From Abditibacterium sp. (lineage in GTDB: Bacteria > Armatimonadota > Abditibacteriia > Abditibacteriales > Abditibacteriaceae), in assembly GCA_965199495.1 (NCBI GenBank), contig CBDASK010000003.1, positions 2,528,001 to 2,592,000 on the forward strand: DNA of 64,000 nucleotides, read 5' to 3'. Below the pieces are notes generated by a model that saw nothing but the letters and a program-made list of their open reading frames with translations, searched no databases and was not told the origin of the DNA. The position numbers were made by a program, and so were the translations under genes. Below are positions 223-63,406 of this stretch, piece by piece; positions within the stretch are counted from its first letter, which is position 1; each line of letters starts with the position of its first letter.

Positions 223-1542
223 ATGAAACTCTTATCCAATCGCCGCGCTGTGCGCTCTGCTTTGTTGATGTTGGCCTTTGCGCCCGCCGCCATGAACGTG
301 GCGCAGGCGCAGATGCCCGCCTTACCGCCCGCACCAATCAATCAGCCGTTGCCCCAAAGCCCAAATGTTGACCAAGCCGCGTTTTTGGTGAACGAAGCCT
401 ACAATATCGCTGGCAGCAACGCGGCGGCGCGTGCGGTCGCGGTCAAAACTTCGGCTTCGTTGCTGGCGCGGTTGCCCGAATCGAACCGCGAAGTGGGCCG
501 CGAACAGCTCACCGCGCGTTTCTTCAAATACGCGCAAAGCGGCGACGTTTCCGATGCGGTGCGCACCGATGCGCTTTCGTCGTTTTTCGATGCGGCTTCC
601 AAAGCCGATCCCGATTATGCGTTGCGTTGGGCGATGGCGACCAAAGATGACGCCGCACGCGCGGGCGCATTGCTCGCGGTTTCGCGCGCTTTGCCCGACG
701 CGCAGTGGGCGCGCGCCGATTCGCTGGCCGCCGATGCCGCGCGCGCCGCGCGTCAGGAACCCGACGAATTGCGCCGCGCCCGCGCCCTCGTTTATGTCGC
801 CGACCGCATGACCGAGTTTTCGCCCGCGCGCGCACAGGATTCCATCGCCGAGGCGCGCCGCGAAATCGCCCAGTTGGGCGATTCGTCCGAACAAGACAAC
901 CTCACGTCGGATTTGATTCCCGCCGTGGCTCGCTACGATGTGAACATGGCGCGCACAATGGTGAATGGTATTGGCGATGCCGACTTGAAAAATTTGGCGG
1001 GCGCGCGCGTCAACCTCGCTGAGGCTTCGCTTTCGACAGTCACTACGCGCACCAAAGATCGCGTGCAGGTCTTGGCAACCGCCGCCGCGCCCTACGACAA
1101 TCGCGCCCTGCCGCTTTTGGTGAAGTTGCCGCCCGAACCATCGGTTTTAAAAGCGATTTCCGAAACGCTCCCGCCGGTTTACGCCTCGGCGCGTCCGGCG
1201 ATTGACGTAGATCGTTTACAATCGCTGTGGGATTATAGCCAGAAAGCGCCCGAAGGCGTCTATCGCGACCAATTGCAATCGCGCTTGGCGCGCCTGATGG
1301 TGACGCAAGACCTGTGGCGCGGACGCGATTGGGGCAAACAATTGGCGTGGAAAGGAGGGCGCGTTCAAGTCGGCGCGTTTTTGAAAGACGTGCTGGCCTA
1401 TCGTTCGTCGCAACTCAAAGTGGCCACGCTACAAGATGTCGCGCAGGGCGATGTCAATGCGGCTTTGGTGCAAGCGCGCACGCTGGGGCCGGTCGAGCGC
1501 ACCGAGGCACTTTTGCTGTTGGCCGGACAGATTTTGGCGTAA
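223..1542 (+). CDS. Secreted, Ala-rich alpha-helical repeat-like hypothetical protein
   Basis: Long ORF; ATG at 223 gives a signal-peptide-like N-terminus (MKLLSNRRAVRSALLMLAFAPAA...AQA) and a Pro-rich linker. An alternative GTG start lies at 175. Confidence 0.7.
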   Translation: MKLLSNRRAVRSALLMLAFAPAAMNVAQAQMPALPPAPINQPLPQSPNVDQAAFLVNEAYNIAGSNAAARAVAVKTSASLLARLPESNREVGREQLTARFFKYAQSGDVSDAVRTDALSSFFDAASKADPDYALRWAMATKDDAARAGALLAVSRALPDAQWARADSLAADAARAARQEPDELRRARALVYVADRMTEFSPARAQDSIAEARREIAQLGDSSEQDNLTSDLIPAVARYDVNMARTMVNGIGDADLKNLAGARVNLAEASLSTVTTRTKDRVQVLATAAAPYDNRALPLLVKLPPEPSVLKAISETLPPVYASARPAIDVDRLQSLWDYSQKAPEGVYRDQLQSRLARLMVTQDLWRGRDWGKQLAWKGGRVQVGAFLKDVLAYRSSQLKVATLQDVAQGDVNAALVQARTLGPVERTEALLLLAGQILA

Positions 1543-1628
1543 ATCAGATTGTTCGTAGAACAAACGCTTCGCTCTTCGTGAGCGGGGCGTTTGTTGTTTG
1601 CGGCCACGATTTGCCCCACCGATACGCT

Positions 1629-2552
1629 ATGACTCCGCTTATTCTCGTCGCCGGATTTTTAGGCGCAGGCAAAACCACGTTTCTGCGCCATATTTTGCTC
1701 GACGCGCGCGCGAAAAATTTGAACATCGGCGTGATTATCAACGAGTTCGGCGCCATTGACGTGGACAGCGAAATTTTGCGCGATAAGGCACAAAATCTGG
1801 CGAGCGTCGCTGGAGGTTGCGCCTGTTGCGCTGGACAAGACGATTTCGTCGAAGCCGTCGAAAATATGAGCCACGTCGGGTTCGATGCAATTGTCGTCGA
1901 AGCGTCGGGTTTGGCCGATTCGCTGATTTTGCTGGAAACGCTCGCCGCGCCCGATTTATTGAAACGTGTGCAAACCGCGCAAATTGTGTGCGTGGCCGAC
2001 GCTTCCAATTGGAACGCGACGGCGGGCGCGTTGGGGCCGCTACTTCGACGACAATTAATGTTAGCCGATACCATCGTTCTCAACAAAATTGATTTGGTCA
2101 GCCCAGCCGCCGTGGCTGCATTGCGTGGCAAGGTCGCCGAATTGAATCCGAACGCAAGCGTGCGAACTGCGAGCGAAGGCGAAACCGAATTCGATTGGAA
2201 TCTTGGCTCGCGCGCCGCGACAAAACTCGATTTACCAATCGCGCCGCACGCCGATTCTCATATGATTTGGATTGCATTGCCGCATCCACTTGAACGCTCA
2301 GCTTTGGAGCGCGCGCTATCCGAGTTGGACGAAAATATCTGGCGCGCCAAAGGCTTCGTGCGCGTGCGCGGCGAAAGCGGTTTGCAATTGGTTCAACTCA
2401 GCGGCGGCATGGACGGCAATCGCACGCGCATCGCGCCTTTCGCGATTCCGTTTGGCGCCGATGAACCGCAATTGGGTTTGGTTTTTATCGGCGCGGGCTT
2501 CGACGGCGCGTGGGTGAAGCGCGCGTTTGAATCGCTCAACCCGACGTTTTAA
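1629..2552 (+). CDS. COG0523/CobW-family G3E GTPase metallochaperone
   Basis: GFLGAGKTT Walker A, INEFG, GGCACC (CxCC), VEASG, LNKID and C-terminal WRAKG motifs. Confidence 0.92.
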   Translation: MTPLILVAGFLGAGKTTFLRHILLDARAKNLNIGVIINEFGAIDVDSEILRDKAQNLASVAGGCACCAGQDDFVEAVENMSHVGFDAIVVEASGLADSLILLETLAAPDLLKRVQTAQIVCVADASNWNATAGALGPLLRRQLMLADTIVLNKIDLVSPAAVAALRGKVAELNPNASVRTASEGETEFDWNLGSRAATKLDLPIAPHADSHMIWIALPHPLERSALERALSELDENIWRAKGFVRVRGESGLQLVQLSGGMDGNRTRIAPFAIPFGADEPQLGLVFIGAGFDGAWVKRAFESLNPTF

Positions 2553-2604
2553 CGCGTCGTTCGCAGAGCTATGCCACTGCTAATAAGTGCATTAAACTGC
2601 GGGC

Positions 2605-3906
2605 GTGAAACTCTCAACTCGCGAAAAGAAATTTTTTGTGTTTTGCACTCTCGTCATCGCGTTGCCGTTGGGCGTTGGGTTGTATATCAACCATCTCAAC
2701 GCGGCGTCGAACGCGCCCATTCCGGCGTATCCGCGCGCGCCCAATCCCAATGGCTATGACCTTTATGTCGCAGCAGAGGCGGCGATGACGCGCGCGACGC
2801 CAAGCGTCGATCCCAACAGCGACGCCCGCCCGCCAACCGATGCCAAAGCGCGCGCGGCGCGTTATTCGCTGGCGCGGCGCAACGCGTGGTTGGGGCAAAA
2901 TGGCAAAACGTTCGCGTTGTTTAATCAGGCGATGAAAACGCCGTCGCTGGCGCCGCCGAGCCGCTCGATTGCCAATACCAACCCGACTTACGCGCGGTTG
3001 CGCGAGTTGGCGCGCGCCAAAGCCGCCCAGAGCAACACGCTGTGGATGCGCCGCGATTACAACGGCGCGCTGCAAAGCGGTTTGGATACGATTCAGATGG
3101 GCCACGATATGCGGCACGGCACGCAGATCATCGGCAGTCTGGTCGGCATGGCCATCGGCGCCATTGGGGGCCGCGCGACCAACGACACCATCGAGCGCGT
3201 GAACGCGGCGCAGGCCAAAAGCGCGGCCAAGCGTCTGGAAAAAATGCTGCAAACGCGCTGGAATCTCGACCAAACGCTAACCGAAGAAAAATACGCGAAC
3301 CAGACGTTCATGGTGCCGCTCGTCAAAGCGGGCACCTGGCGGTTATCGAGCGCGCCGTGGATGCTGAGCGGCACGGTGCCTTCGCTGTCCGAGCGTGTGC
3401 ATCTGGCGACTTTGCCGACGAGCCAAATCTTGCGCGACATCGAAAACGAACATAACCGTCAAATCGCCAACGCGAAGTTGCCTTACGCCAACGTGGGGCA
3501 AGCGCGTCCCAATTATAGCGATCCGTTCGTGCCGCAGGAATTCAAGCGTTTGCCCATCAACAACGCGCGCGATTTGGCGCGCGACCGTTTTCTGATGCTG
3601 CGTCTGGCGTTGCGCGCTTACCGTTTGGAGCAGGGCGTTTATCCGCCGAATTTAAACGCGCTCGTGCCCGCTTATTTAAGCGCCGTGCCCGCCGATCCGT
3701 TCGGCGGCGGCGAAGCGATGCGTTATAAATTGAGCGGCGCCAAATACGTTTTGTGGAGCATTGGGCCGGACGGCGCAGACGATGGCGGCAAACCGGTTCC
3801 GTTTCTCAAACCGGCGCCCACAACTTACGCGGGCGAGCGCCCCGTCGAACGCCTATTCACCGATTTCAACGGCAAAGGCGATGTTGTCGCGGGCGTGAAC
3901 GGCTAA
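2605..3906 (+). CDS. Membrane-anchored hypothetical protein with GspG/pseudopilin-like C-terminal motif (paralog 1)
   Basis: N-terminal TM helix; C-terminal LRAYRLEQGVYPPNLNALVP..DPF..Y..WSIGPDG.DDGG. Confidence 0.75.
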   Translation: MKLSTREKKFFVFCTLVIALPLGVGLYINHLNAASNAPIPAYPRAPNPNGYDLYVAAEAAMTRATPSVDPNSDARPPTDAKARAARYSLARRNAWLGQNGKTFALFNQAMKTPSLAPPSRSIANTNPTYARLRELARAKAAQSNTLWMRRDYNGALQSGLDTIQMGHDMRHGTQIIGSLVGMAIGAIGGRATNDTIERVNAAQAKSAAKRLEKMLQTRWNLDQTLTEEKYANQTFMVPLVKAGTWRLSSAPWMLSGTVPSLSERVHLATLPTSQILRDIENEHNRQIANAKLPYANVGQARPNYSDPFVPQEFKRLPINNARDLARDRFLMLRLALRAYRLEQGVYPPNLNALVPAYLSAVPADPFGGGEAMRYKLSGAKYVLWSIGPDGADDGGKPVPFLKPAPTTYAGERPVERLFTDFNGKGDVVAGVNG

Positions 3907-3916
3907 AATTAAACGC

Positions 3917-5224
3917 ATGAAATTCAAATCCGGCGAAAAGAAAATGCTGGCGTTTTTCGTCGTCGCCATCGCGCTGCCCCTGAGCGTTGGGCTGTTTCTC
4001 AATCGCATCAACGCGACGCCAACTGTCAACATTCCGGCGCCCGCGCCGCGCCCGAAACCCAATGGCTACGATTTATATGTCGCGGCAGCCACGGCGATGA
4101 CGCGCGTCAAACCTGAAACCGATCCGGCCAGCGATACGACGTTTGTAACCGATCCAAAAGTGTGGGCGCAACGTTATTCGCTGGCGCGCCGCACGGCGTG
4201 GCTGAACGCGAACGCGAAGTCTTTCGCTTTGTTCGATCAGGCGCTTCAAACGCCGACGATGGCGCCACTTTCACGCTCTTTCAGCGGAAATAGCTTCGGT
4301 TCCTACGCCAAACTGCGACAAATGGCGCGCGATAAATCGGCGCAGAGCAACACGCTATGGATGCGCGGCGATTACAACGGCGCGCTGCAAAGTAATCTCG
4401 ATACAATTCAAATGGGCCAAGATATGCGGCATGGCGGCGTTCTCATTACTCAGTTGGTTGGCATCGCCATCGGCGCCATCGGGCGCGGTAACACGGGCGG
4501 AACAATCGAACATTTGGACGCCGCGCAGTGCAAAAGCGCGGCGCGGCGCATGGAGAAAATGTTAGCGAATCGTTGGCGCTTAGATCAAGTTCTGACCGAA
4601 GAAAAATGGGCGACGGAAGCGGCGCTTATGGAAAGTTTCGGGCAAAAAAACTGGCGCACTGGATTCTTCGGCAAAGAGATGACTCCGTTGAAGCGTTGGC
4701 GCATTTATACGATTTCCAAACAGCAAATCATCGATAATGTCGGCGCCAGTTACGATCAGCAAATCGCCAATGCGCGTTTGCCCTACACGCAAAAAGGCGC
4801 ATCAATTCAAGCCGACGATCCCTTTTTGGAAATTTTAGTCGCCAACGGTGACCGCGCGCGCATCAATGAAGCGCGCGGTTTGATGGGCGACGACACTTTA
4901 ATGCTGCAACTCGCTTTGCGCGCTTATAATTTGGAAAATGGCGTTTATCCGCCGAATTTGAAAGCGCTCGTGCCCAATTATCTGGGGGCCGTGCCCGCCG
5001 ATCCGTTTGGCGGCGGCGAAGCGTTGCGCTACAAAATCAGCGGCAAAACTTACGCGTTGTGGAGCATCGGCCCCGACGGCAAAGATGACGGTGGCAAACC
5101 GATTCCGCCGCGTAATGGCATTCGGCACACGAAACCTTTCCCCGGTCAGCGCCCGCGTGGGCCGCGTTCGTTTGTCGAATTCGAGGGCAAAGGCGATGTC
5201 GTGGCGGGCGTGAATACTGGATAG
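3917..5224 (+). CDS. Membrane-anchored hypothetical protein with GspG/pseudopilin-like C-terminal motif (paralog 2)
   Basis: Colinear paralog of 2605-3906 (shared PNGYDLYVAA, RYSLARR, AQSNTLWMR, WSIGPDG, GKGDVVAGVN). Confidence 0.75.
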   Translation: MKFKSGEKKMLAFFVVAIALPLSVGLFLNRINATPTVNIPAPAPRPKPNGYDLYVAAATAMTRVKPETDPASDTTFVTDPKVWAQRYSLARRTAWLNANAKSFALFDQALQTPTMAPLSRSFSGNSFGSYAKLRQMARDKSAQSNTLWMRGDYNGALQSNLDTIQMGQDMRHGGVLITQLVGIAIGAIGRGNTGGTIEHLDAAQCKSAARRMEKMLANRWRLDQVLTEEKWATEAALMESFGQKNWRTGFFGKEMTPLKRWRIYTISKQQIIDNVGASYDQQIANARLPYTQKGASIQADDPFLEILVANGDRARINEARGLMGDDTLMLQLALRAYNLENGVYPPNLKALVPNYLGAVPADPFGGGEALRYKISGKTYALWSIGPDGKDDGGKPIPPRNGIRHTKPFPGQRPRGPRSFVEFEGKGDVVAGVNTG

Positions 5225-5308
5225 TCGGACTACGGATCTCAAATATCGGATGGGTTGAAGAGAGTTGAACGAAACTGAACTCTCTTCGTATCATCCGACA
5301 TCCGCTAC
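5225..5308. repeat. Imperfect palindrome with heptamer-periodic (..CGGA) arms between convergent genes
   Basis: GAAGAGAGTT (5257-5266)/AACTCTCTTC (5278-5287); TCGGATG/CATCCGA outer arms. Confidence 0.55.
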
Positions 5309-6403
5309 TCAAACCGAGAACCGGAAGTTCATCAAGTCGCCGTCTTTGACGATGTAATCTTTGCCTTCCAATCGCATTTTGCCCGCCGCTTTCGCGCCTT
5401 TTTCGCCCTTCAACTCGATATAATCGCCGAACGAAATCACTTCGGCGCGAATAAAACCGCGCTCGAAGTCGGTGTGAATCACGCCCGCCGCTTGCGGCGC
5501 CGTGGCTCCAACTTTGATTTCCCACGCGCGCACCTCTTTTTCGCCCGCCGTGAAATAAGTTTGAAGTCCGAGCAAAGCATAACCAGCGCGAATCACGCGA
5601 TTTAAACCCGGCTCCGATAATCCGATTTCGGCCAAAAATTCGAGTTTTTCTTCGTCACTCATGTCCATAATTTCGGCTTCGAGCGAAGCGCACACCGGCA
5701 CAACGATGGAATTCTCTTTGGCCGCATATTCTACGACTGCTTGCAAATGCGGGTTGTCTTCCAAGTTGCCCGCGTCAGCCACGTTGGCGACATACATCGT
5801 CGGCTTGAGCGTGAGCAGGTTGAAACTCTTGATCGCCGCGCGCTCGTCGTCGGTTAAATCGAGCGAGCGCACGGCATTGCCCTCATTCAAACATTCGAGC
5901 GCGCGTTCCAAAACCGGGACTTGTTGATTCGCCAATTTGTCGCCGCTTTTAGCGGCTTTGCGCGCGCGGTCAATAGCTTTTTCCACGCTGGTCAAATCGG
6001 CCAGAGCCAATTCCGTGTTGATCACTTCGATGTCCGAAACCGGATCAACTTTGCCCGCGACGTGAACGACATCATCATTCTCGAAGCAGCGCACGACGTG
6101 CGCGATGGCGTCGCATTCGCGGATGTTAGCCAAGAATTTATTGCCCAGACCTTCGCCTTTGCTGGCGCCCGCGACCAAACCGGCGATGTCCACAAATTCG
6201 GTCACCGCGTTCAAAACGCGTTGCGGATTGACGATTGCGGCGAGTTCCGCCAACCGTTCATCGGGCACGGGCACGATGCCGACGTTGGGTTCGATGGTGC
6301 AAAACGGATAGTTTTCGGCGGCGATTTCGGCGCGCGTGAGGGCATTAAACAAGGTCGATTTGCCGACGTTTGGCAAACCCACGATTCCACATTGAAGACT
6401 CAT
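5309..6403 (-). CDS. ychF: Redox-regulated ATPase YchF (Obg family)
   Basis: [56 protein letters not shown]. Real start is ATG 6403; the ORF-track extension runs through a repeat. Confidence 0.97.
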
Positions 6404-6423
6404 AATCAACCAAACAGTATGAC

Positions 6424-6572
6424 GATTAGCCACAGAGGACACAGAGAACGCACAGAAAAACACAGAAAGAACGAAGAAACCAAAGATATACAAAAGCACT
6501 TTCTTTTTCGATTTATTCTCTTCCTTCTCTCTGTGTTTTTCTGTGCGTTCTCTGTGTCCTCTGTGGCTAATC
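6424..6572. repeat. Long palindromic element, CACAGAG family, copy 1
   Basis: GATTAGCCACAGAGGACACAGAGAACGCACAGAAAAACACAGA and its exact reverse complement; supplies the TAG stop of 6567-7619. Confidence 0.95.
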
Positions 6573-7619
6573 CCAGACAATCGCCACTTTTCCGCTCTGG
6601 CCCGAATCGAAAATTTCATACGCTTCTTTCGCTTCGTCTAACGTAAATTTGTGCGTCACGATGCAATCGGGATGCAAATCCCACGCGACCAATTTCTCGA
6701 CTAACTCTTCCATTTGGCCAATCGAGCAAACCCACGAACCGTGCAACGTCAACTGTTTGTGCAGCAACAACGGCGACGGCTCGAACGTCACATCGCCGCC
6801 TTCGCCGACGAAAACCACACGGCCCCAATCGCGCGCGGCTTCCAGACACAAATGGCGCGCGGCTGAGGCGCCCGAACAATCAATAGCGACTTCAAAGCCT
6901 TTGCCGCCATTTAAATCCATCAAATGTTCCAACGCGTTTTCGCCGGGCGCGACGATGTTTTCAAAGCCCAAATCATTGGCCAATTTCACGCGGTCGGCGT
7001 TGCCCTCGACAGCAGCCACGCGCGCGCCCAGCGCGCGGGCGAGCAGGGCGGCGCCCAGTCCGACCGGGCCAAGGCCGGTAATCAAAACTTCGTCGCGCCC
7101 CGAAATCTGCGCGCGCAAACAGGCCGCGTAAACCGTCCCAAACCCGCACGCGACCATCGCGCCATCGAGATACGTCAGCTCATCGGGCAAAAGCACGAGC
7201 GTGCGTTCCTCGGCCAACATAAACGGCGCGTGGCCGCCGTTGCGTTGCCAACCGTAAGCCTCGCGCGCGGGCGAGTGGCAACCGATCATCCAACCGCTAC
7301 GGCACGCCTCGCACACGCCGCAACCCGCGATATGATAAGCCACAACGCGGTCGCCGACCTGAAAGCGCGAAACATCTTCGCCGACCGCGACGATTTGTCC
7401 GCACGGCTCGTGCCCGGCGATGACGCCGCGATAGGCTTCGGGGCCGCTACCTTGATCGTGGGGGCGATAAATCGCGCGCAAATCGGAGCCGCACAAACTG
7501 GAGGCTTTAATCTGAATCAAAACTTCGCGCGCGCCGGGCGTTGGAACGTTGAACTCGCGAATTTCGAGTTGGCGGTCGCCGGGCAAAACGACGCCGGGCA
7601 TAGTCTGGGGAAGGGACAT
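6567..7619 (-). CDS. Zinc-dependent alcohol/sugar dehydrogenase (MDR family)
   Basis: CGSD, GHE, CxxCxxCx7C structural Zn site, GLGPVG. Confidence 0.92.
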
Positions 7620-7693
7620 GAATCGAAGTTTAAGTGAGCCGAGTTCGGAGGCGCTTGTGTGTTGGGCGGGACTAATTTATAATAGAAATTGAA

Positions 7694-8851
7694 ATGAATC
7701 CGCAAATTCGTCTGCTGTTGCCCATCGGTGCGCTCGCGCTTGTCGTGGGCGGGCTTCTCGTCTGGAGCGACACGCGATTGAAGAAAATTGCGCCTTCCCC
7801 TGGCGGCGTGGCTGCTTATGCAGTGTGGGCGCCCGATACGGTTTGGCCGTGGCCAAACGCCCATACCAAAACGCTGGCGCCGGGCGTGACGCAGATTTCC
7901 AAAATTTCATCGGATGGCACGATGCTCGACTTATTCGACTTCGATTTTGGCGCCAACCCGCGTTTGCGCTGGGAAATTTTCGATCAGGACGAAGACGACG
8001 CCAAACCATTGGATAATCACGTCGCGTATTGGGATCGTAACGTCGCGCAAATGACGAAACAACTCGATGGCGCCAAAGGGCGCGGCCCGGTTTTGGTGGC
8101 GTGGAACGGCGCGTTTTTCGGCTACGATAACCACACCGTAACCGAAGACGCCTTTCACGTTTCGCCGGTTGTTTTGCGCGGCAAAGTTTATTTTTATACC
8201 GCGCAACATCGCTGGACTTTCGGCGTGAAGAACACAGCCACGGGGCCGGTGTGGAAAACGTTTTTCGAGCCAAGTCGCGCCACGATGGAGCGCGAATTCG
8301 ACTGGGCGGCGGGTAGCGTGCAATGTCTAATTAAAGACGGCAAACCGCTCAAAATCGAACCGTTCCCGCCCGTTGGCGGCGCTTTCAAATCGCAGCCAGT
8401 GCCTTCGACCGACAAAGAAGCCGGGCACATTCCCTATTTCGATCACATGAAAACTTGCCGCGCTTCGATTGGCTGGAGCCGCGATAACAAGCATTTGTAT
8501 TTTCTGGCGGTCAAAGAACCCGACGACGAAAGCTCATCGAGCGTGGCTTTGTCGTTCGCGGTGCGCGGCGAGCCGATTCCCGCCAATACGTCGCTTGCCG
8601 GTGGCTGGAGCGTGGCCGATGTCGGCAAGTTCTGGCAAAGTATGGGCGTGTGGGGCGCGATTAATTCCGACGCGGGCGGCGTGATGCAGTGGATCGCGCG
8701 CAAACCCGATAACGCCGGTTGGGAAATAGTGCCAGCGCACCAATCGTCGAACCAAATGCGCGTGCAAATCGCGCCGAATTGGGACGGCGAAATCAAGGGC
8801 GGCGGTTCGATTATGTATTTCTTCGTGCGCGAAATCGGGCAAACTAAGTAG
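7694..8851 (+). CDS. Phosphodiester glycosidase (NAGPA/DUF2233)-like protein, membrane anchored
   Basis: N-terminal TM; NGAFF, RASIG and AINSDAGG resemble the family motifs. Confidence 0.65.
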   Translation: MNPQIRLLLPIGALALVVGGLLVWSDTRLKKIAPSPGGVAAYAVWAPDTVWPWPNAHTKTLAPGVTQISKISSDGTMLDLFDFDFGANPRLRWEIFDQDEDDAKPLDNHVAYWDRNVAQMTKQLDGAKGRGPVLVAWNGAFFGYDNHTVTEDAFHVSPVVLRGKVYFYTAQHRWTFGVKNTATGPVWKTFFEPSRATMEREFDWAAGSVQCLIKDGKPLKIEPFPPVGGAFKSQPVPSTDKEAGHIPYFDHMKTCRASIGWSRDNKHLYFLAVKEPDDESSSSVALSFAVRGEPIPANTSLAGGWSVADVGKFWQSMGVWGAINSDAGGVMQWIARKPDNAGWEIVPAHQSSNQMRVQIAPNWDGEIKGGGSIMYFFVREIGQTK

Positions 8852-8852
8852 C

Positions 8853-9251: not shown

Positions 9252-9256
9252 TTTGG

Positions 9257-9407: not shown

Positions 9408-9417
9408 CAATAGCACA

Positions 9418-54388: not shown

Positions 54389-55786
54389 TTGCCGTGGATC
54401 CAAGTCTGCCACAACGCGCCCTACTTTCAGGACGAAACTGGAAAACCTTGGACGCCCATCGGCCAAAACGACGCCATTACCTGGCCCGATTTCGCTGGAG
54501 CTTTTCGCCGCCGCGACCTCAACTCGGTTGAAGAACATCTGAAATTTTTGGCCGATCACGACGTGAATTGCCTGAGATTGATGCTGGAATATTGCCAGTC
54601 GCCGCATCGCACGCTGGAAAAGCCGGTCGGTCGTTTCGTGCCCAATATGGTGCGATTGTGGGACGATATTTTCGCCTTATGCGAAAAATATGGCATCCGC
54701 ATTTTGCTGACGCCTTACGACACGTTCTGGATGTGGATTCGTTGGGATAAGCATCCCTATAACGAAATTAACGGTGGAATTTGTGACAGTCGTAATCGCT
54801 GGCTTTTGGAGCCGCGAATGCGCGACGCGATGAAAGCGCGTCTCGAATTTGCCACTGCGCGTTGGGGTGGTAGCGGCGCGTTGTTCGCGTGGGACATCTG
54901 GAACGAAGTGAACCCGGTGCACGCGCAGAACTCAACCGAACCGTTTTGGGAGTTCGTCTCCGACATCAGCGACTTTTTGCGCGCAACCGAAATGCGTTTG
55001 CATGGCCGCGCGCATCCGCAAACGATGTCCACTTACGGTATGCCCTCCGATTTCGACGCGGGCATGACGGCGGCGATTTACCATCATCCGGGTTTGGATT
55101 TCGCCAGCGTCCATTTTTACGAGCGCCCGGCAATTGACAACCCGAAAAACACGGTGGACAGCGCAGTTTTGGTCGGCGCCATGACGCGCGAGGCATTGGG
55201 AGAAATTCGTGACAATCGTCCGTTTTTCGATTCGGAACACGGCCCAATTCACACGTTCAAAGACAAAAAGAAAACATTGTCCGAAGCGTTCGACGACGAG
55301 TATTTTCGCCATTTTCAGTGGGCACATTTCGCGAGCGGCGCCGTCGGCGGCGGGATGCGCTGGCCCAATCGCCACCCGCACGTTTTGACTTATGGTATGC
55401 GCGCCGCCCAGAAATCGCTCGCCGATTTTTTGCCGCTCATCAACTGGAACGATTTCAAGCGCCGCAATCTCAATTGCGAAATCGAAATTGACCCCCAGAA
55501 TTGCACCGTCTGCGCCTGTGGCGACGAAAATCAAGCGGTTGTTTGGCTGTTGCGTCTGGATATTACCGGCAAAAACGGTCTGCTGCAACCAGCAGCCACG
55601 CCGACGGTGTTGAATCTCAAAGTGCCCGGTTTAGCGCGCGGCAATTATAGAGTGACGGCGTGGAACACGACGCAGGGCGTGCCCGTGGCTGCATTCGAGG
55701 CCGCGTCCGATGGCGAAGTCTTACAACTTGAAACGCCGCCATTTGCCCACGATTTGGCGCTGGCGATTAGGCGGATCGGCGACTGA
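54389..55786 (+). CDS. Clan GH-A (GH5-like) glycoside hydrolase
   Basis: APYF..E.G, AWDIWNE, SVHFY, DSEHGP; start uncertain. Confidence 0.7.
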   Translation: MPWIQVCHNAPYFQDETGKPWTPIGQNDAITWPDFAGAFRRRDLNSVEEHLKFLADHDVNCLRLMLEYCQSPHRTLEKPVGRFVPNMVRLWDDIFALCEKYGIRILLTPYDTFWMWIRWDKHPYNEINGGICDSRNRWLLEPRMRDAMKARLEFATARWGGSGALFAWDIWNEVNPVHAQNSTEPFWEFVSDISDFLRATEMRLHGRAHPQTMSTYGMPSDFDAGMTAAIYHHPGLDFASVHFYERPAIDNPKNTVDSAVLVGAMTREALGEIRDNRPFFDSEHGPIHTFKDKKKTLSEAFDDEYFRHFQWAHFASGAVGGGMRWPNRHPHVLTYGMRAAQKSLADFLPLINWNDFKRRNLNCEIEIDPQNCTVCACGDENQAVVWLLRLDITGKNGLLQPAATPTVLNLKVPGLARGNYRVTAWNTTQGVPVAAFEAASDGEVLQLETPPFAHDLALAIRRIGD

Positions 55787-55795
55787 ATCGTAAGC

Positions 55796-56455
55796 TCACG
55801 CCGATTGGCAACAGCCTTCTTCGCGCACGCAACGACAGGCCACGACGCCCATCAACGCGCCTAAAACCGGAGCCACCAGATAAATCCACAAACTTGCCAG
55901 ATGAAGCGAAACCAACGCCGGAGCCAGCGAGCGTGCCGGGTTCATCGAAGCGCCGCAAATCGGGCCAGCAAACAACGCTTCCAAACCAATGACCGCGCCC
56001 ACGACAATGCCCGCTGTAATGCCTTTTTCTTTGGCGCCCGTCGAAACGCCCAAAATAACGAACATCAAAATCGCGGTCAGAATCCATTCCAAAACGAAAG
56101 ATTGACTGCTCGAACCGGCGGGCAAAGTGCGGCCCAACGTGAGATTGGTGGGAAATAGAAACCGCAGCATAAGGCTGGCTGCCAGAGCGCCCAGACATTG
56201 ACTGAGAATATAAGGCGCTACCAGGCGCGACTGGAACCGCCGCGCCGCCCAAAAACCGAGGGTCACGGCGGGATTGAGATGCGCGCCGGAAACCTCGCCC
56301 AGCGTGTAAATCATCGCCAGCACGATCAGCCCGAAAGTTAGAGCCACGCCGACGTGAGACACCGCGCCGCCATTAACATCGTTAGTGACGATGGCGCCAG
56401 TTCCGGCAAAGACCAGACAAAAAGTGCCGATAAACTCGGCGGCAAACTTTTTCAT
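55796..56455 (-). CDS. MIP-family aquaporin with a Cys-rich tail
   Basis: AEFIGTF, SGAHLNPAVT, GASMNPARS. Confidence 0.93.
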   Translation of the reverse strand: MKKFAAEFIGTFCLVFAGTGAIVTNDVNGGAVSHVGVALTFGLIVLAMIYTLGEVSGAHLNPAVTLGFWAARRFQSRLVAPYILSQCLGALAASLMLRFLFPTNLTLGRTLPAGSSSQSFVLEWILTAILMFVILGVSTGAKEKGITAGIVVGAVIGLEALFAGPICGASMNPARSLAPALVSLHLASLWIYLVAPVLGALMGVVACRCVREEGCCQSA

Positions 56456-56519
56456 GCGGCCATTAATTTAACCGATTCAAAGGGAGCGCGCATTGTGTTC
56501 CCGTTGATTTCAATCAATT

Positions 56520-58016
56520 CTAATCTTGCGCGGGCAAATCTAACTCAACTTCCAATCCTCCATTTTCGACATTGCGCGCGCTGACTTTTCCGCCGTGTGC
56601 GCTGATGGCGCGCTGCACAATCGCCAGACCCAGACCGGCGCCGCCGCTCTGGCGGTCGCGAGCTTCTTCGACGCGGAAAAATGGCTCGAAAATGCGTTCG
56701 AGCGTTTCTGGGGGCACGCCCGCGCCAAAATCGCGCACGCGGATGAGGGCGCCGCTCGCGCTCGCTTCGAGCGCGATTTCGACCGCCGTGTTTTCGGGCG
56801 TGTGGCGTAGCGCGTTGCGCACCACGTTTTCGATGGCCGAACCCAATAACGTGCGCTCGCCCTGCATTGAAAAATCATCGGCGCGCCCCAGTTCGACGCG
56901 TTTGTTACACGTCTGCGCCTCGAAACGCGCATCGGCGGCGATTTCTTTGACCAATTCGGTCACGTTTACGCTCTCGAATTCGCCTTGACCACCGTTTTCC
57001 AGGCGCGTCAAATCTAATAGTTGGCCGATGAGCGCATCCAAGCGCCCAGTTTCGCGCGTGATGCGCTCGAAGGCGGGCATAAATTCGGTGCCCGCCGCGC
57101 CGCTTTCGATTTGGCGACGACCCAGCGCGCCCGCCATGCGCAGGCGCGCCAATGGCGAGCGCAGTTCGTGCGAAATATCGCCCAAAAGTTGGCGCTGGCC
57201 CTCGACTAAATTCTCGATGCGGCCCGCCATAATATCGAAATCGCGGCCCAAGTCGCCGACTTCGTCGCGGCGCCCGTTGCGATTGGCGCCGGTGCGCGCC
57301 GCCAAATCGCCCGCCGCCAATTTTTGCGTGGCATTGCGAAGCGTTATCAGTGGCGCCGTCAGATAGCGCACCAAACCCCAGCAGACCAGCCCCGACAAAA
57401 CCAGAGCCACGGCGCCGCCGATGAGTTGGGTGCGCGCTTTGGTGGCGGGCCGTCCCGATTCGGGGAGGGGCAGGTCAGCGACCAAAATGTAGTTGACGCC
57501 GCTTTCGCTGGTCTCGCGCACCGCCGCGACGACGCGCGCGTTAAATAACTCGAAAACCGGTTGTCCACCCGCGCTCGCCTGCTTCACCATTTTTTCAAAG
57601 CGCGCGCGCGCTTTGGCAACGGTGGCGTCATCGGCAAAGCGCGATTCTATCGCGGGCAAGTTAAAAGTGCGCGAGTTGTCCGCGCCCAGCGCCGAGCGAT
57701 TATCCGGCGCATCCGCATCATCTATGTTCGCGGCGGGGCGCCCCAGCTTTTGGCCGTTGGCATCGAGCAAACGCAGACGAACTTTGCCGCCGCGTTGCGC
57801 ACTGCGCAAAGCCGTGCGCAACGCGGGCGCGCCGCCGCGTTCCCATTCCGAGACCATCACGGTCGCCGTGGCTCCCAACGCCGACGCGGTGTTTTTGCGC
57901 CATTCGAGCGGCATCGGTTCGGGCCGCGTGGTCAAGACGACCGTATAAAGCGCCAGCCCGATGAGAATCATCGCGCCCCAGAACCAACCGAAAATTTTCC
58001 AAAAAAGACGGGGCAT
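56520..58016 (-). CDS. CpxA-like membrane sensor histidine kinase
   Basis: RLFWKIF..FW, HAMP, DISHELRSPLARL, ENVVRNA, D.G.G, GAGLGL; start taken at ATG 58016. Confidence 0.9.
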   Translation of the reverse strand: MPRLFWKIFGWFWGAMILIGLALYTVVLTTRPEPMPLEWRKNTASALGATATVMVSEWERGGAPALRTALRSAQRGGKVRLRLLDANGQKLGRPAANIDDADAPDNRSALGADNSRTFNLPAIESRFADDATVAKARARFEKMVKQASAGGQPVFELFNARVVAAVRETSESGVNYILVADLPLPESGRPATKARTQLIGGAVALVLSGLVCWGLVRYLTAPLITLRNATQKLAAGDLAARTGANRNGRRDEVGDLGRDFDIMAGRIENLVEGQRQLLGDISHELRSPLARLRMAGALGRRQIESGAAGTEFMPAFERITRETGRLDALIGQLLDLTRLENGGQGEFESVNVTELVKEIAADARFEAQTCNKRVELGRADDFSMQGERTLLGSAIENVVRNALRHTPENTAVEIALEASASGALIRVRDFGAGVPPETLERIFEPFFRVEEARDRQSGGAGLGLAIVQRAISAHGGKVSARNVENGGLEVELDLPAQD

Positions 58017-58021
58017 GGAAT

Positions 58022-58140
58022 GTAAGGGACAGGGGACAAGGAGCAGGGAACAAGGAATTATAAGAGCGCAGGGCATCGCGCTCGCGTTACCTGCGACGGT
58101 TTTAACCTTGTCCCTTGTCCCCTGCTCCTTGTTCCTTTAC
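58022..58140. repeat. Palindrome with 7-nt periodic arms (AAGGGAC-type) inside the two-component operon
   Basis: Left AAGGGAC AGGGGAC AAGGAGC AGGGAAC AAGG; right (reverse complement) AAGGAAC AAGGAGC AGGGGAC AAGGGAC AAGG. Confidence 0.85.
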
Positions 58141-58854
58141 GGGCGGCAACGCGTAAATATAACCGACGCTGCGCACGGTTTTGACGCGTTCGGCGTCGTT
58201 GGGGTAGGGGCCAATTTTGCGACGCAAACGCGAAATATGAGTGTCAACGCTACGGTCAAAGGCGCTGAGTTGGCGATCCAAAATGCGCTTGGAAATCGTC
58301 TCGCGCGTCACGATTTCGCCCGCCGATTGCGCCAAAAGCGTCAACAAATCGAATTCGACGGCGGTCAGGTTGAGCTTGTGCCCATTGCATCGGGCTGTGC
58401 GCGCTCCGCCATCAATAATTAAATCGCCAACGTTCAACAATTCGCGATTTTCGGTCGGCGCGGCAGGCGTTTCGCTGGCCGGGCGGGCGCGGCGCAAAAT
58501 CGCGCGCAAGCGGGCCACGAGTTCGCGTTCGTCGAACGGTTTGGGCAAATAATCGTCGGCTCCCACTTCCAAACCGACGATGCGATCCACGGCCTGACCG
58601 CGCGCCGTTAGCATTAGAACCGGCGTTTGTGCGCCCACACTGCCGCCGCCGCGCAACCGTTTCAAAACCTCGAAACCGCTGAGTTTCGGCAGCATCACGT
58701 CCAATAAAATCGCTTCGTAGTCGCCAGCACTCGCGCTCTCCAAACCCGACGCCCCGTCGTGTTGAGCCGAAACGCGAAAACCTTCGAGCGCGAGATATTC
58801 GCCGACCATTTCGCACAACTCGGTATCGTCGTCGATCATCAAAATCGGTTTCAT
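58102..58854 (-). CDS. CpxR-like OmpR-family response regulator
   Basis: IDDD, LLDVMLP, MLTARG, GADDYLPKPF, DRSVDTHISRLRRK, TVRSVGY. Confidence 0.93.
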   Translation of the reverse strand: MKPILMIDDDTELCEMVGEYLALEGFRVSAQHDGASGLESASAGDYEAILLDVMLPKLSGFEVLKRLRGGGSVGAQTPVLMLTARGQAVDRIVGLEVGADDYLPKPFDERELVARLRAILRRARPASETPAAPTENRELLNVGDLIIDGGARTARCNGHKLNLTAVEFDLLTLLAQSAGEIVTRETISKRILDRQLSAFDRSVDTHISRLRRKIGPYPNDAERVKTVRSVGYIYALPPVKEQGAGDKGQG

Positions 58855-58914
58855 CCGGTTAAGTATCGCGCGCCACCAAGCAGAAATGCGAAATCGTCAG
58901 AATTATTCACGTTA

Positions 58915-59078
58915 ATTTTAGCCACAGAGGGCACAGAGAACACACAGAGGGGCACAGAAAAGAACGAAGAAATTAAAATGGAGAAGAACCATTATTTATG
59001 GTTTTGCCTTTCCGTTTTAATTTCTTCGTTCTTTTCTGTGCCCCTCTGTGTGTTCTCTGTGCCCTCTGTGGCTGAATT
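58915..59078. repeat. Long palindromic element, CACAGAG family, copy 5
   Basis: About 63-bp arms AGCCACAGAGGGCACAGAGAACACACAGAGGGGCACAGAAAAGAACGAAGAAATTAAAA; begins just after the sucB stop. Confidence 0.95.
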
Positions 59079-59083
59079 TGCGT

Positions 59084-60373
59084 CTAAACTTCCAGCAACA
59101 TTCGGTTTGGATTTTCGATGCAATCGGCCAAACGTTTCAAGAACGAGACGGCTTCGCGGCCATCCACAATGCGATGATCGTAAGTCAAGGCCAGATACAT
59201 CATCGGCGCAATGACGACTTGGCCGTTGCGCGCGACCGGGCGTTCCTGAATCGAGTGCATACCCAAAATGCCCGACTGCGGCGCGTTGACGATGGGCGTT
59301 GACAAAAGCGAACCGTAGATGCCGCCGTTGGTAATGGTGAAAGTTCCGCCAGAAAGTTCGTCGGGCGAGATTTTGCCGGTTTTGACTTTACCCGCGAAAT
59401 CGGCAATCGCCAACTCGATTTCGGCGAAACTCATGCGCTCGGCGTGCTTGAGAACCGGCACAACCAAGGCTTTGCCGCCGCCAATCGCCACGCCGATGTC
59501 GTAGTGATTGCGATAGACAATCGAGTCGCCCTGAATTTCGGCGTTAATGGCCGGATAGGCTTTGAGCGCGTCAATCGCCGCTTTGACGAAGAACGACATG
59601 AAGCCCAACTTGATGCCGTATTTTTTGGTGAACGCGTCCTGATGTTCCTTGCGCAATTGCATAACGGCGCTCATGTCGGCTTCGTTGAACGTCGTCAAAA
59701 GCGCGGCGGTTTGCTGCGCCTCGACCAAACGTTGCGCGATTTTGCGGCGAAGCGGCGTCATACGCACGACTTCCTCGTCTTCGCCCGCTTCAACCGGAGC
59801 CGATGGCGCGGCGGGCATCGGCGTCGCTTTGGATTCGGTCGGCGTGGCTGATGTTGGTGCGGGCGCCGATTTCTTCGCTTCGACCGCGTTTTGCACGTCC
59901 GATTTCAGCAAACGTCCGCCGGGGCCAGTGGCAGCCACGTCGCCCGCCTTCATGTTGTTTTGCGCCAATTCGCGCGCGGCGGCGGGCATCACGCGCGCGT
60001 CTTCGTCACCCGATTGCGGCGGATGCGTGCCGATTTCCATGCCGTTGGCGCCCGCGCCGGGCGTGTCGAGATTGCCTTCGGGCTTTGCTTCGACTTTGCC
60101 TTCAGTTTTGGCGCCCGAACCGTTGGAGGTGCCTGAACCTTCTTCCAAAATGGCGACGACTTCGCCAATAGCGACGACATCACCCTGCTTTTTGAGAATT
60201 TTGCCGATGACGCCGCTCGAAGGCGCGGGCAGTTCGACCGTCGCTTTGTCACTTTCGAGCATCACGACGATTTCATCGGTCGAGACAGCATCGCCCTCGT
60301 TTTTGAGCCATTCGCCCATTTCGACTTCGGAGACCGATTCGCCAACCGACGGAATTTTAATTTCTACGGACAT
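59084..60373 (-). CDS. sucB: 2-oxoglutarate dehydrogenase E2 (dihydrolipoamide succinyltransferase)
   Basis: Lipoyl [40 protein letters not shown]. Confidence 0.97.
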
Positions 60374-60476
60374 GATTGATTGGGTTCACAGTGTGAACGT
60401 TTGCGCGCCCATTTTCAACAGCAAAAGTTAAATTGGTTGATGGTTTGAGCGAGTGAATTTATAACGGGCAAACGGA

Positions 60477-60508
60477 AAAGCCCGACAGAAATTAATCTGC
60501 CGGGCTTT
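60477..60508 (-). terminator. Hairpin between sucA and sucB
   Basis: AAAGCCCGACAGA / TCTGCCGGGCTTT with a short T-run on the minus strand. Confidence 0.55.
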
Positions 60509-60520
60509 CGCGCTCCAATT

Positions 60521-63406
60521 TTATCGCTCGAACGCCGCGTTAATCAGCATTTCCTGTTCCTTGCGATGGCTGGCCGCGCTGCCGGTGGCTGGGCTGGCGC
60601 TACGGGCGCGATAAACGCCGCTCCACTCGAATCGCTTGGTCAAAACGCGCCAAAAACTGGTGTCCATATGGAACCACGCGCCCATATTTTCCGGCTCTTC
60701 CTGCGCCCACACGATTTTGGTGCCGTCGGCGTATGGCGCTAAGGCGCCCATCAATTCGTCGTTGGAGAGCGGATACAACTCTTCGACGCGCAAGATAGCC
60801 ACGTCGTTGGCGCCGCGTTCTTCGCGGGCTTTGTCCAGCTCGTAATAGATTTTGCCGCAACACAGAATCACTTTCGAGATTTCTTTGCCGCTCCGTCCGT
60901 GCGAATCGGGAATGATTTTCTGCCAAGTGCCCGTCGCCAACTCGTCCAGACTCGAAATCACTTCGATGTGGCGCAGCAGACTTTTGGGTGACATTACAAT
61001 TAAGGGTTTGCGCCATTTGCGCAAGACCTGACGGCGCATCAGATGGAACATCTGCGCGGGCGTCGTCGGGTAAACGACCTGAAAATTGTCCTGAGCCGCC
61101 AACAGCAAAAACCGTTCGGGTCGCGCCGACGAATGTTCCGGCCCGGCGCCTTCGTAGCCGTGCGGTAAAAGCATCGTCAGGCCCGACAGATGATTCCATT
61201 TGTCCTCCGCCGACGCGATGAACTGGTCAACGATGACCTGTGCCGTGTTCCAGAAATCACCGAACTGCGCTTCCCAAATCACCAAACCGCCCAGCGCGTC
61301 GAGCGAATAACCGTATTCAAAACCCAAAACGCTGTTTTCCGATAAAGGCGAATTATAAATCCGTAAACGCGCCTGATCCGAAGCCAGATGATGAAGCGGC
61401 ACGTATTCTTCGCCATTGTTCACGTCGTGCAAAACCGCGTGACGATGCGAAAACGTGCCGCGCTCGCTGTCCTGTCCGCTCATGCGAATTGGCACGCCTT
61501 CGGTTGACAGAGTCGCGAAAGCCAAGGCTTCGCCCGCCGACCAATCGAGCGGCGCTTCGCCCTTGGCCATTTGTAGTCGCGCTTTCAGAAGGCGCTCAAT
61601 TTTCGGATGCGGCGTGAAATCTTCGGGGACGGTCGCCAACTGTTCCAGCAACATTTGCAGCCGTTCTTTGGGCACGCCGGTATTGACTTCGGGCGCGTTG
61701 GCGTCCACGCCGCCGATGTAGCCGCCGTGCGTTTTGCGCTCGCGCGTCGGCGCCTCTTCGTGCGCCTGCGAGAGTTCGTTTTCCAAATGCGTGCGGCGGC
61801 GTTCGGCGATGGCGTCGGCCTCTTCGCGCGTGATTTCGCCCATGCCCAATAATCTGTCCAAATAACCTTCGCGCACCGATTGGCGCTTGGAAATCGCCGC
61901 GTAAGTCAACGGTTGCGTGAACGCCGGTTCGTCGCTTTCGTTGTGACCCAGCTTGCGATACGAATACATATCGATCACGGCGTCGCGGCGAAATTTGCGG
62001 CGAAATTCCATCGCGATTTTCACCGTCGCGGCGACGGCTTCGGGGTCTTCGCCGTTGACATGGAAAATCGGGATTTGCAGCATTTTCGCGATGTCGGTGC
62101 AATAATGGCTCGACCGCGCCTCTTTCTGCTCGGTCGTAAAACCGATTTGGTTATTGATCACGACGTGAAGCGCGCCGCCAACCGTGTAGCCGGGCAACTG
62201 GCTCAGATTCAGCGTTTCCTGCACCACGCCTTCGCCGATAAACGCGGCGTCGCCATGAATCAGAATCAGCAAACCGCGTTCGCGCGCGTAATCGTCAATG
62301 CGATCTTCCTTGGCGCGCAAGCGCCCCATCGCGACCGGATTGACGAACTCCAGATGCGACGGGTTGAAACAGAGCGACAAATGAACTTTGCGCCCGGTCG
62401 AAGTCTGATAATCGTTGACGTAACCCAGATGGTATTTCACGTCGCCGCCGCCCAGATGCAAATCCGGGTCTTTGTCCTCGAACTCGCGGAAAATCTCGCG
62501 CGGACTTTTACCGATAATGTTCGCCAACACGTTCAAGCGCCCGCGATGCGCCATGCCGACGACGACTTCCTGAATGCCCTGTTCGCCCGCCGCTTCGATG
62601 GCCAAATCCAAAGTCGGCAGCAGACTTTCCGAGCCTTCGAGCGAGAACGATTTAGCACCGGTGAATTTCCGGCGAATGAACTCCTCGAAAATGACGGCAT
62701 CGCTTAAACGCGTCAAGATGCGAATCTGTTCGGGCCGCGACAATTGCGCACGGTTTTGCGTGGACTCCATGCGCTGTTGCAGCCAGTTGCGCGCTTCGAT
62801 GTCGTCAATGTGGGTGAACTGCACGCCGACGGTGCGCGAATAAGTGTTTTTCAGCCGTTGAATCAGTTCGCGAAGCGGCAACTGTCCAGAATTTTCGAGC
62901 GAGCGGTCGCAGGCGAAAACCCGATCCATGTCGGATTCGCGAAAGCCGTAAAATATCGGTTCGAGTTCGGGAATGACCGGCACTTCCTGAAAACCCAATG
63001 GATCCAAATCGGCGATGAGATGGCCGCGCACGCGATAGTTGCGCACCAGTTGCGTTACCGCTTCTTGACGTTCTTTGGCGGCGGCGGCCAAAGCCGCTTG
63101 CCCGTCGCTGTTAATCGGCGCGACGGGATTGCCGCCGGGATTGAAAATCGAGGTCGTCTCGAATGTCGGGCCGAGTTGCGTCGAACCGTTGGAGCCCGGC
63201 CCGGTCACGTTGTCGAGCGACTCGAAATAACGCCGCCAATCGGGTGGCACGCTGTTGGGGTTGCGTTCGTAATCGGCGTAGATACCCTCGATAAAACCGA
63301 GGTTGGAATTGTTGGGCAGAGTGACTGTGGTAACAGCCACGGCGTCGGCGTGGCTGCTGTCGGCGCCGTTGAGTTCGGCGGAAAGAGTGGAAGTTGTGGA
63401 ATCCAT
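60521..63406 (-). CDS. sucA: 2-oxoglutarate dehydrogenase E1
   Basis: FSLEG, GMAHRGRLNVL, GDVKYHLG, NPSHLE, HGDAAF, WEAQFGDF, LPHGYEG.GPEHSSAR. Confidence 0.97.
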   Translation of the reverse strand: MDSTTSTLSAELNGADSSHADAVAVTTVTLPNNSNLGFIEGIYADYERNPNSVPPDWRRYFESLDNVTGPGSNGSTQLGPTFETTSIFNPGGNPVAPINSDGQAALAAAAKERQEAVTQLVRNYRVRGHLIADLDPLGFQEVPVIPELEPIFYGFRESDMDRVFACDRSLENSGQLPLRELIQRLKNTYSRTVGVQFTHIDDIEARNWLQQRMESTQNRAQLSRPEQIRILTRLSDAVIFEEFIRRKFTGAKSFSLEGSESLLPTLDLAIEAAGEQGIQEVVVGMAHRGRLNVLANIIGKSPREIFREFEDKDPDLHLGGGDVKYHLGYVNDYQTSTGRKVHLSLCFNPSHLEFVNPVAMGRLRAKEDRIDDYARERGLLILIHGDAAFIGEGVVQETLNLSQLPGYTVGGALHVVINNQIGFTTEQKEARSSHYCTDIAKMLQIPIFHVNGEDPEAVAATVKIAMEFRRKFRRDAVIDMYSYRKLGHNESDEPAFTQPLTYAAISKRQSVREGYLDRLLGMGEITREEADAIAERRRTHLENELSQAHEEAPTRERKTHGGYIGGVDANAPEVNTGVPKERLQMLLEQLATVPEDFTPHPKIERLLKARLQMAKGEAPLDWSAGEALAFATLSTEGVPIRMSGQDSERGTFSHRHAVLHDVNNGEEYVPLHHLASDQARLRIYNSPLSENSVLGFEYGYSLDALGGLVIWEAQFGDFWNTAQVIVDQFIASAEDKWNHLSGLTMLLPHGYEGAGPEHSSARPERFLLLAAQDNFQVVYPTTPAQMFHLMRRQVLRKWRKPLIVMSPKSLLRHIEVISSLDELATGTWQKIIPDSHGRSGKEISKVILCCGKIYYELDKAREERGANDVAILRVEELYPLSNDELMGALAPYADGTKIVWAQEEPENMGAWFHMDTSFWRVLTKRFEWSGVYRARSASPATGSAASHRKEQEMLINAAFER

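Follow-up and report, generated by a model that had tools for sequence, protein, structure and literature searches.

The sequence analysed here (the window) is a 64,000-nt stretch of an Abditibacterium chromosome (GCA_965199495.1, contig CBDASK010000003.1, positions 2,528,001 to 2,592,000), throughout which a short asymmetric sequence is repeated. We call the 11-mer CG[C/G/A]CGTGGCTG the word; the octamer is CGTGGCTG or its complement CAGCCACG, and the 10-mer is CG[ACG]CGTGGCT. A first-pass annotation of the window had counted about 47 octamers and about 69 heptamers by hand and likened the octamer to a DNA uptake sequence (DUS); our recount gave 48 octamers (23 on the plus and 25 on the minus strand) and 72 heptamers, and all 13 of the coordinates and all five of the inverted pairs that it quoted are present. 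The 10-mer occurs 25 times on the plus strand within 921..63356 (starts at 921, 2108, 4194, 5498, 7804, 10200, 12310, 18237, 19675, 22522, 24699, 27413, 29800, 30997, 37874, 40047, 41145, 43651, 46354, 50059, 52267, 52972, 57864, 59840 and 63346), with a smallest gap between neighbours of 705 bp, and 25 times on the minus strand within 1869..63344 (leftmost bases at 1869, 4087, 10126, 10632, 12328, 13714, 20615, 22801, 24675, 26286, 27429, 29147, 31167, 36742, 38374, 41137, 49133, 51301, 53832, 55594, 56342, 57405, 59933, 60797 and 63335), with a smallest gap of 506 bp. Two of the inverted pairs are probably terminator-like: an intergenic hairpin at 12310..12337, just 3' of an alpha/beta-hydrolase gene (12364-13455, minus strand), and a pair at 27409..27442 between convergent genes for an aldo-keto reductase (plus strand) and a WD40-like protein (minus strand). 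The others lie within genes, namely an outward-facing pair at 24672..24711 in the coding region 24421-25092 (plus strand), an overlapping pair at 41136..41155, whose CG bases are common to both copies, in the gene 40628-41245 (plus strand), and a pair at 63334..63356 in the 2-oxoglutarate dehydrogenase E1 gene (60521-63406, minus strand).

The source genome, G000, is 4.81 Mb in size and has 3,978 genes by our own gene calls. It contains 3,091 octamers, against 237-252 expected from order-2 and order-3 Markov models, and the octamer is its top non-trivial 8-mer at Markov orders 2-5. With CG[C>G>A]CGTGGCTG(C)(T) as its consensus, the true unit is longer than the octamer that had been proposed; variants with one mismatch in the core are scarce, mostly with 0-31 copies compared with 1,051 for the commonest form. 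Of the 2,113 11-mers in the genome, 172 (8%) lie outside genes and 92% are coding. The 1,941 coding copies compare with 51 +/- 5 in 8 synonymous-codon shuffles, a 38-fold excess, and all six reading frames are enriched, which bears out the earlier view that the motif is not one protein motif. Codon or peptide bias as the source of the word was rejected on the same excess. In intergenic DNA the 10-mer is 47-fold above an order-2 model, and only 28 of the 221 intergenic 10-mers are in terminator-type pairs. Pairs within genes numbered 39, against 41 predicted from codon-compatible sites; as clustered compatible sites account for them, we rejected such pairs as a separate signal. The five pairs of the window are real, and those within genes belong to a class that shows no excess.

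The word is unpolarised. Its distribution over the two replichores and strands was 1390:1409, compared with 296:84 for the polar FtsK-orienting sequence KOPS (GGGNAGGG) in the same genome, and 1074 copies are on the leading and 1038 on the lagging strand. It is spread evenly along the chromosome and confined to no macrodomain. Replichore polarity and macrodomain confinement were therefore both rejected, in agreement with the first-pass annotation, which had set the motif apart from Chi and KOPS and had named confinement as the mark of a matS- or SBS-like site. The chromosome has one origin, at about 2.03 Mb, located by dnaA at 2.027 Mb, a flip of the T4 skew (thymine at four-fold sites) and polar KOPS. 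Its genes have no strand bias (1,946 of 3,899 on G000:C3 are on the leading strand), GC skew is almost nil despite the clear origin, and rpoB is near the inferred terminus, at 4.32 Mb. Literature searches for the word itself, and for the lineage together with repeat or competence terms, found no relevant paper, as had been supposed earlier, although the supplements of k-mer surveys could list the word. We concluded that the word is real and, as far as searched, undescribed.

The word signal acts on each strand separately. In G000, the observed-to-expected ratio for same-strand pairs was 0.05-0.24 at 50-300 bp and 0.3-0.5 at 300-750 bp, returning to expectation near 1-1.5 kb, whereas that of opposite-strand pairs was about 1.0; over the whole range below 500 bp the same-strand ratio lay at 0.02-0.35. 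Among 5,809 codon-compatible sites, occupancy rose from 0.01 at less than 30 bp from a same-strand copy to 0.55-0.61 at 1-3 kb, and relative to opposite-strand copies it stayed flat (0.40-0.49) out to 3 kb. A test by 200 permutations among codon-compatible sites confirmed this pattern, and the per-strand spacing is therefore no coding artefact. Control words in G000 showed slight same-strand clustering. The exclusion was equal on the leading and lagging strands, small samples of the relatives G004 and G011 pointed in the same direction, and short-range exclusion was found in G014, G017 and G020, the three relatives with enough data for spacing. A 21-bp tandem repeat at about 220,000 of G004:C8 (the junction of loci L151 and L152), with 8 units each carrying the word, breaks the same-strand exclusion locally.

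As a control for uptake sequences we used Neisseria DUS that are not paired, from a set of metagenome loci of which 46 of 62 were left once overlaps had been removed (748 kb). Their ratios at 100-1,000 bp were 0.79-1.19 on the same strand and 0.79-1.27 on opposite strands, and the same- to opposite-strand neighbours at 45-500 bp were 49:62, against 81:375 for the word (Fisher p=3e-8). In a toy gain-loss model, the observed curves were obtained only with strand-specific redundancy; otherwise both classes of pairs were depleted. We concluded that per-strand exclusion over about 1 kb is a new property, foreign to the Neisseria DUS and Escherichia coli Chi controls, and that whatever reads the word is satisfied by roughly one copy per kilobase per strand. 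Such strand-separate reading is not predicted by structural duplex binders or by orientation-blind uptake. That the word is a nucleoid or chromosome-organisation site like matS or SBS, or a by-product of codon or peptide bias, is hardly probable at all; the even genome-wide spread would fit the former, and a structural role was proposed for the cyanobacterial highly iterated palindrome HIP1 (GCGATCGC) from its periodicity (PMC5861425), but macrodomain confinement is absent, a duplex-binding structural protein should notice opposite-strand neighbours, and the excess after synonymous shuffling contradicts the latter. That the word serves to prime or restart replication, being read on the template strand, is very improbable, too. 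Such a role would account for spacing per strand on the scale of Okazaki fragments, but it predicts polarity on a chromosome with one origin, where counts and exclusion are equal on the leading and lagging strands, and 10 of 13 genomes of the genus do without the word.

The word is scarce on mobile DNA. The occupancy of compatible sites in G000 was 44.5% on the chromosome, 20.6% in islands (a figure that is partly circular, because the islands were delimited by low word density), 2 of 35 on a phage-like contig and 0 of 12 on a plasmid. These two contigs, G000:C1 and C2 (25-kb plasmid-like and 65-kb phage-like), share the palindrome avoidance of the chromosome and have almost no words, and viral contigs gave single chance-level matches, with no dense carrier among the loci listed. 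The depletion in foreign DNA that had been claimed thus holds genome-wide; the three atypical segments of the window cited for it are too short to show it either way (0.5-0.7 copies expected in each). A low-GC open reading frame with an N-terminal Fic domain (47626-48567; 37% GC over 48010-48560) is inserted in the window after the succinyl-CoA ligase alpha gene.

A 155-kb alignment of G000 with G011 contained 78 common word sites, 34 found only in G000 and 12 found only in G011. The fraction of G000 sites kept in G011 (78 of 112) compares with 33% identity for generic 10-mers. The peptide was changed at 20 of the 29 turnover sites scored, and no compensatory gain was seen beside sites lost in G011, the events being few. 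The word has also left an imprint on the proteome, several of the encodable tripeptides in G000 being above their reversed forms, by up to 2.3-fold, and others not; peptide enrichment from uptake sequences has been reported earlier (PMC2817400).

The flanks of the sites bear on a methylation or mismatch-repair strand signal acting about 1 kb to either side, as in Elhai's model for HIP1 or as a site on the new strand that is nicked in a MutH-like way. In its favour, Elhai's model predicts that sites saturate at about one per 1,000 nt (PMC4390886), the exclusion is the same on the 5' and 3' sides, mutL occurs in 5 of 5 genomes, and the palindromic words of relatives described below share AGTACT. 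A mismatch-repair signal also predicts a local fall in the substitution rate, but four-fold-site divergence between G000 and G011 shows no trend with distance from the word, staying at 0.26-0.28. No local antimutator effect was seen, the GC content at four-fold sites (GC4) changing only from 0.815 to 0.783 with distance, and there was no marked strand-specific shift in composition near one-strand sites. Besides, resident mobile DNA is without the word, and none of the methyltransferases considered as candidate readers co-distributes with it: an N6/N4 orphan enzyme is present in both word-bearing and word-less genomes, and C5 methyltransferases are patchy, with no match in 5 of the 10 word-bearing genomes. 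We thus regard this explanation as quite improbable. The orphan enzyme, of about 260 amino acids (G000:C3:1807692-1808396 and loci L410-L429), is 58-71% conserved across most of the family.

Only three of 401 genomes of the phylum have the 11-mer in abundance, G000 (2,113 copies), G011 (1,776) and G004 (720), the next highest count being 134. These three form one Abditibacterium clade nested among word-less, AddA-bearing congeners in a rough tree of 26 genomes built on uneven data, and the word is absent from the other 10 of the 13 genomes of the genus. A scan for hairpins of the word, with one genome per species, found 107 loci; among the 80 listed, the records with several matches were from Abditibacterium or Abditibacteriales, except for a three-record Coproplasma set with one match each, and the flanks of hairpin loci match G000 proteins at up to 88-92% identity.

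We surveyed samples of 14-100 kb from each of 26 other family genomes. Iterated words at about one per kb were found in nine of them, so that ten genomes including G000 are word-bearing, and the samples of the other 17 showed no such word. The word of G011 is that of G000, and that of G004 is AGGACGTGGCTGGTGTC, with a graded consensus of up to about 17 bp. The seven other word-bearing genomes have different words, palindromic in six and occurring mostly as inverted pairs in one. The palindrome ATCGAGTACTCGAT is found in G020, G024 and G026, with a shorter core in G022; copies of the 10-bp core of this palindrome number 1,834-3,166 in the four genomes, against at most 37 in the other 397 searched. 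G014 has TGCAAGTACTTGCA and G018 has CAAAGTACTTTG. AGTACT is common to the palindromic dialects; GTAC is nearly absent from many relatives, yet stands at the centre of these dialects. In G017 the word is AGTACGGTCGA and occurs mostly in inverted pairs of 24 bp bordered by A/T runs, 35 pairs being found among its 99 half-sites; at loci L171-L174 and L637 such pairs, flanked by A- and T-runs, recur every 2 kb or so and resemble bidirectional terminators. A screen for hidden words in G016, five other word-less genomes, G013 and G019 found none, its power being low (the positive control, G004, reached only z=-2.2).

The genes for competence that had been named as a check are present. All 27 of the family genomes have comEC and 25 of them have comEA; dprA, mutL, FtsK, the pilus ATPases and recA were each found in 5 of 5. 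A conserved pilB-pilT-pilC-pilD locus does not differ in gene content between word-bearing and word-less genomes. As readers of the word, comEC, comEA, dprA, mutL, FtsK, the pilus ATPases and the pilins were therefore rejected, as were RadC (1 of 27), RecD2 (0 of 5) and the AAA_12 family (2 of 5), which do not track it. A search for a ComP-type receptor pilin found PF16732 in 0 of 5 genomes, the positive control being also silent, and no ComP_DUS match on the pilins of the pilus locus. Minor pilins diverge very fast, a pilin of 597 amino acids being 49% identical between G000 and G011 where PilB, PilT and PilC are 92-98% identical (L460, G000:C3:867671-876728).

These genes leave room for a true uptake sequence read in an oriented way, in which a pilus-tip pilin or a ComEA/ComEC step would pick the imported strand and drive would act as with DUS and the uptake signal sequence (USS). 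The competence genes and the conserved pilus locus with its fast-evolving minor pilins would suit it, and so would the long graded consensus of G004, the A/T-flanked pairs of G017, which resemble Neisseria terminators, dialects that parallel those of Neisseriaceae (PMC3630211), and the strong avoidance of restriction-type palindromes, which fits frequent DNA exchange. We nevertheless consider it rather unlikely. Known USS uptake is orientation-independent (PMC1939737), the Neisseria control lacks strand-specific exclusion, word-less genomes have the same competence and pilus genes with no word-specific gene in the loci compared, and the AddAB pattern described below is left unexplained. In general, the word resembles the ComP-read DUS of Neisseriaceae and the USS of Pasteurellaceae in being non-palindromic, at about one copy per kb, in all frames and without replichore bias, and in its peptide enrichment, scarcity in accessory DNA, family dialects and occasional terminator hairpins. 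It differs in its same-strand-only exclusion, its 92% of coding copies, its dialects that switch between palindromic and non-palindromic forms, and its unrelated lineage. The DUS-like reading first proposed agrees with the density, symmetry, depletion, dialects and proteome imprint, but not with the exclusion, the mere 8% of copies outside genes, or the equal competence genes of word-less genomes.

Absence of AddAB appears, from gene searches, to be the one clear gene contrast of word-bearing with word-less genomes. An AddA-type gene was found in 10 of 10 word-less genomes of the genus and in G015, but in 0 of the 10 word-bearing family genomes, two of which are only 63% and 77% complete; G000 itself gave no AddA-type UvrD match and no AddB match. 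G000 has instead an iron-sulphur (FeS) Dna2-like nuclease-helicase of 1,421 amino acids (G000:C3:4111365-4115630, minus strand), with PD-(D/E)xK and AAA_11/12 domains and four invariant iron-staple cysteines; by structure, its best relative is DNA2. The protein is conserved in the clade, with 21 near homologues at 59-89% identity; the fold of residues 1-950 predicted without an alignment was unusable (predicted local distance difference test score, pLDDT, 37). Enzymes of about 1,420 amino acids occur in five of 27 family genomes (G000, G004, G011, G017 and G016), and within the genus the gene is found only in the three word-bearing genomes (3 of 13), that of G011 having lost its 5' half and kept a broken 3' half. 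G011 is also the poorer in sites at aligned positions (28 against 4, p=2e-5), which was counted in favour of the enzyme as reader. By its domains, without orthology being assumed, the protein is like the Geobacillus bacterial DNA2-like enzyme Bad, in which an iron-staple PD-(D/E)xK nuclease is fused to a superfamily 1B (SF1B) helicase; no sequence-specific activity of Bad is reported in the portion of the source available (PMC7430649). The mean unwinding by Bad, about 900 bp (PMC7430649), lies near the exclusion range and was counted in favour of a Dna2-like reader. As the candidate reader in this clade the enzyme is a lead only, and rather unlikely as things stand.

We favour the reading, at a probability of about 0.45, that the word is a self-signal read on one strand in homologous recombination and spread by molecular drive. 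It draws on the even spacing per strand, the concentration of sites in the core chromosome, their conservation together with peptide-changing turnover, the dialects of the family and the failure to find AddAB in any word-bearing genome. The word would be read as single-stranded DNA or in a fixed orientation, and for about 1 kb around it the strand bearing it would be favoured when DNA ends are repaired and when incoming DNA from kin is integrated. Further copies on that strand would be redundant and a copy on the opposite strand would not, so that biased recombination would spread the word until each strand was covered; palindromic and inverted-pair dialects would serve both strands at once. 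The reader would most likely be an end-processing or single-stranded-DNA-handling enzyme that replaced AddAB and Chi. The step may be one in which the strand with the word is protected, loaded or preferred, or alternatively one in which an end-processing enzyme, at work on random breaks or on linear DNA that has come in, is stopped by the word in one orientation. Either would also propagate the word through biased transmission, which would fit the saturation, the cost in amino-acid changes, the rarity of the word on mobile DNA and the way in which flanks are rewritten from one close relative to another.

Several points weigh against this reading. E. coli Chi has no deficit of same-strand pairs below 500 bp (10 against 9.2 expected, for the first 100 of 1,008 sites). 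Six word-less family genomes also have no clear AddA, and because the genomes are kin, no more than about 2-3 of the contrasts are independent. Six of the 10 word-bearing genomes, all with palindromic dialects, gave no Dna2-like gene, the gene is intact in G016, which showed no word in about 95 kb, and the agreement of Bad processivity with the exclusion range may be a coincidence. One-way scanning and two-sided action are identical by construction in the toy model and the pair statistics; likewise, no 5'/3' asymmetry was seen between strong and weak sites in G000, the pair term being symmetric in order and thus uninformative. Competence in this lineage is presumed from its genes. The asymmetry of sites between G000 and G011, which is unpolarised by an outgroup, could reflect gain in G000.

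To our knowledge, hyper-abundant self-words of bacteria in print belong to only three classes, DUS/USS, Chi and HIP1, and the mechanism of HIP1 has been open for three decades. The word is DUS/USS-like in distribution, Chi-like in strandedness and HIP1-like in saturation, but fails a defining test of each. With Chi, as read by RecBCD and AddAB, it has in common orientation specificity, over-representation, asymmetry and a plausible role at DNA ends; it differs in lacking leading-strand bias, in the failure to find AddAB, in its greater length (10-17 bp), in its far higher saturation (45% of compatible sites) and in its same-strand exclusion, which E. coli Chi does not show. HIP1 and the alternate cyanobacterial palindromes are likewise hyper-abundant words that arose in genes by substitution and are conserved from one genome to another, and family relatives of G000 carry palindromes of 14-24 bp. 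Unlike HIP1, the word of G000, G004 and G011 is asymmetric, so that its per-strand action, which would be hidden in a palindrome, comes to light; no methyltransferase was found to have the same distribution, and words are patchy within one family. HIP1 is reported to affect transformation and recombination, and a dual role for it, uptake-like and partly Chi-like and without need of addAB, has been proposed (10.1101/2024.09.10.611283), which we count in favour of the recombination reading; a link to uptake genes has been proposed as well (PMC13756078). Marine picocyanobacteria have recBCD and several model strains are without parts of it (PMC5101192), a parallel to the AddAB pattern that is loose because PCC 7002 has addAB. 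It is doubtful whether an undescribed, AddAB-independent recombination pathway, with a sequence-specific factor that reads the species word on single strands, exists in Abditibacteriaceae and perhaps in cyanobacteria (HIP1) and other iterated-word lineages. If it did, iterated palindromes would be two single-strand signals in one, exposed by the asymmetric dialect, and the FeS nuclease-helicase of this clade would be a Dna2 with a Chi-like word of its own, the first such enzyme in bacteria.

The word is more unusual than first held, being a strand-specific iterated signal with family dialects and an anti-correlation with AddAB. Its asymmetry allows the two strands to be analysed separately, and the per-strand coverage, the range of about 1 kb and the absence of AddAB constrain any mechanism. 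Comparison of same- and opposite-strand spacing is a simple genome statistic for other iterated words, and the family offers natural contrasts, its close relatives differing by gain, by a shift of dialect and possibly by decay, together with a named candidate enzyme.

Some further features were recorded. An SbcCD-like pair (an ATPase and a metallophosphoesterase, by sequence only) is encoded at G000:C3:80384-84531, divergent from mutL, and was not seen beside mutL in G009, G014 or G020. In G009, which bears AddAB, AAGCGG occurs at about 2.7 per kb, against 1.0-1.5 in relatives (L155-L158, L467, L469, L473); it shows no strand bias and contains the Bacillus subtilis Chi AGCGG, and G009 is also more GC-rich. 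The 6-bp palindromes CGGCCG, CTCGAG, CCCGGG, CCGCGG, TTCGAA and others stand at 0.01-0.1 of expectation in G000, which also avoids CTAG, GTAC and GGWCC. An array resembling clustered regularly interspaced short palindromic repeats (CRISPR) lies at G000:C3:2766486-2775009, with 131 repeat copies at a spacing of about 65 bp. Two dispersed families like repetitive extragenic palindromic (REP) elements were found on G000:C3, one marked by GGTGTCTCTAC (157 copies, many of them in pairs at a distance of 70-110 bp) and the other by TATCGCGTCT (128 copies).

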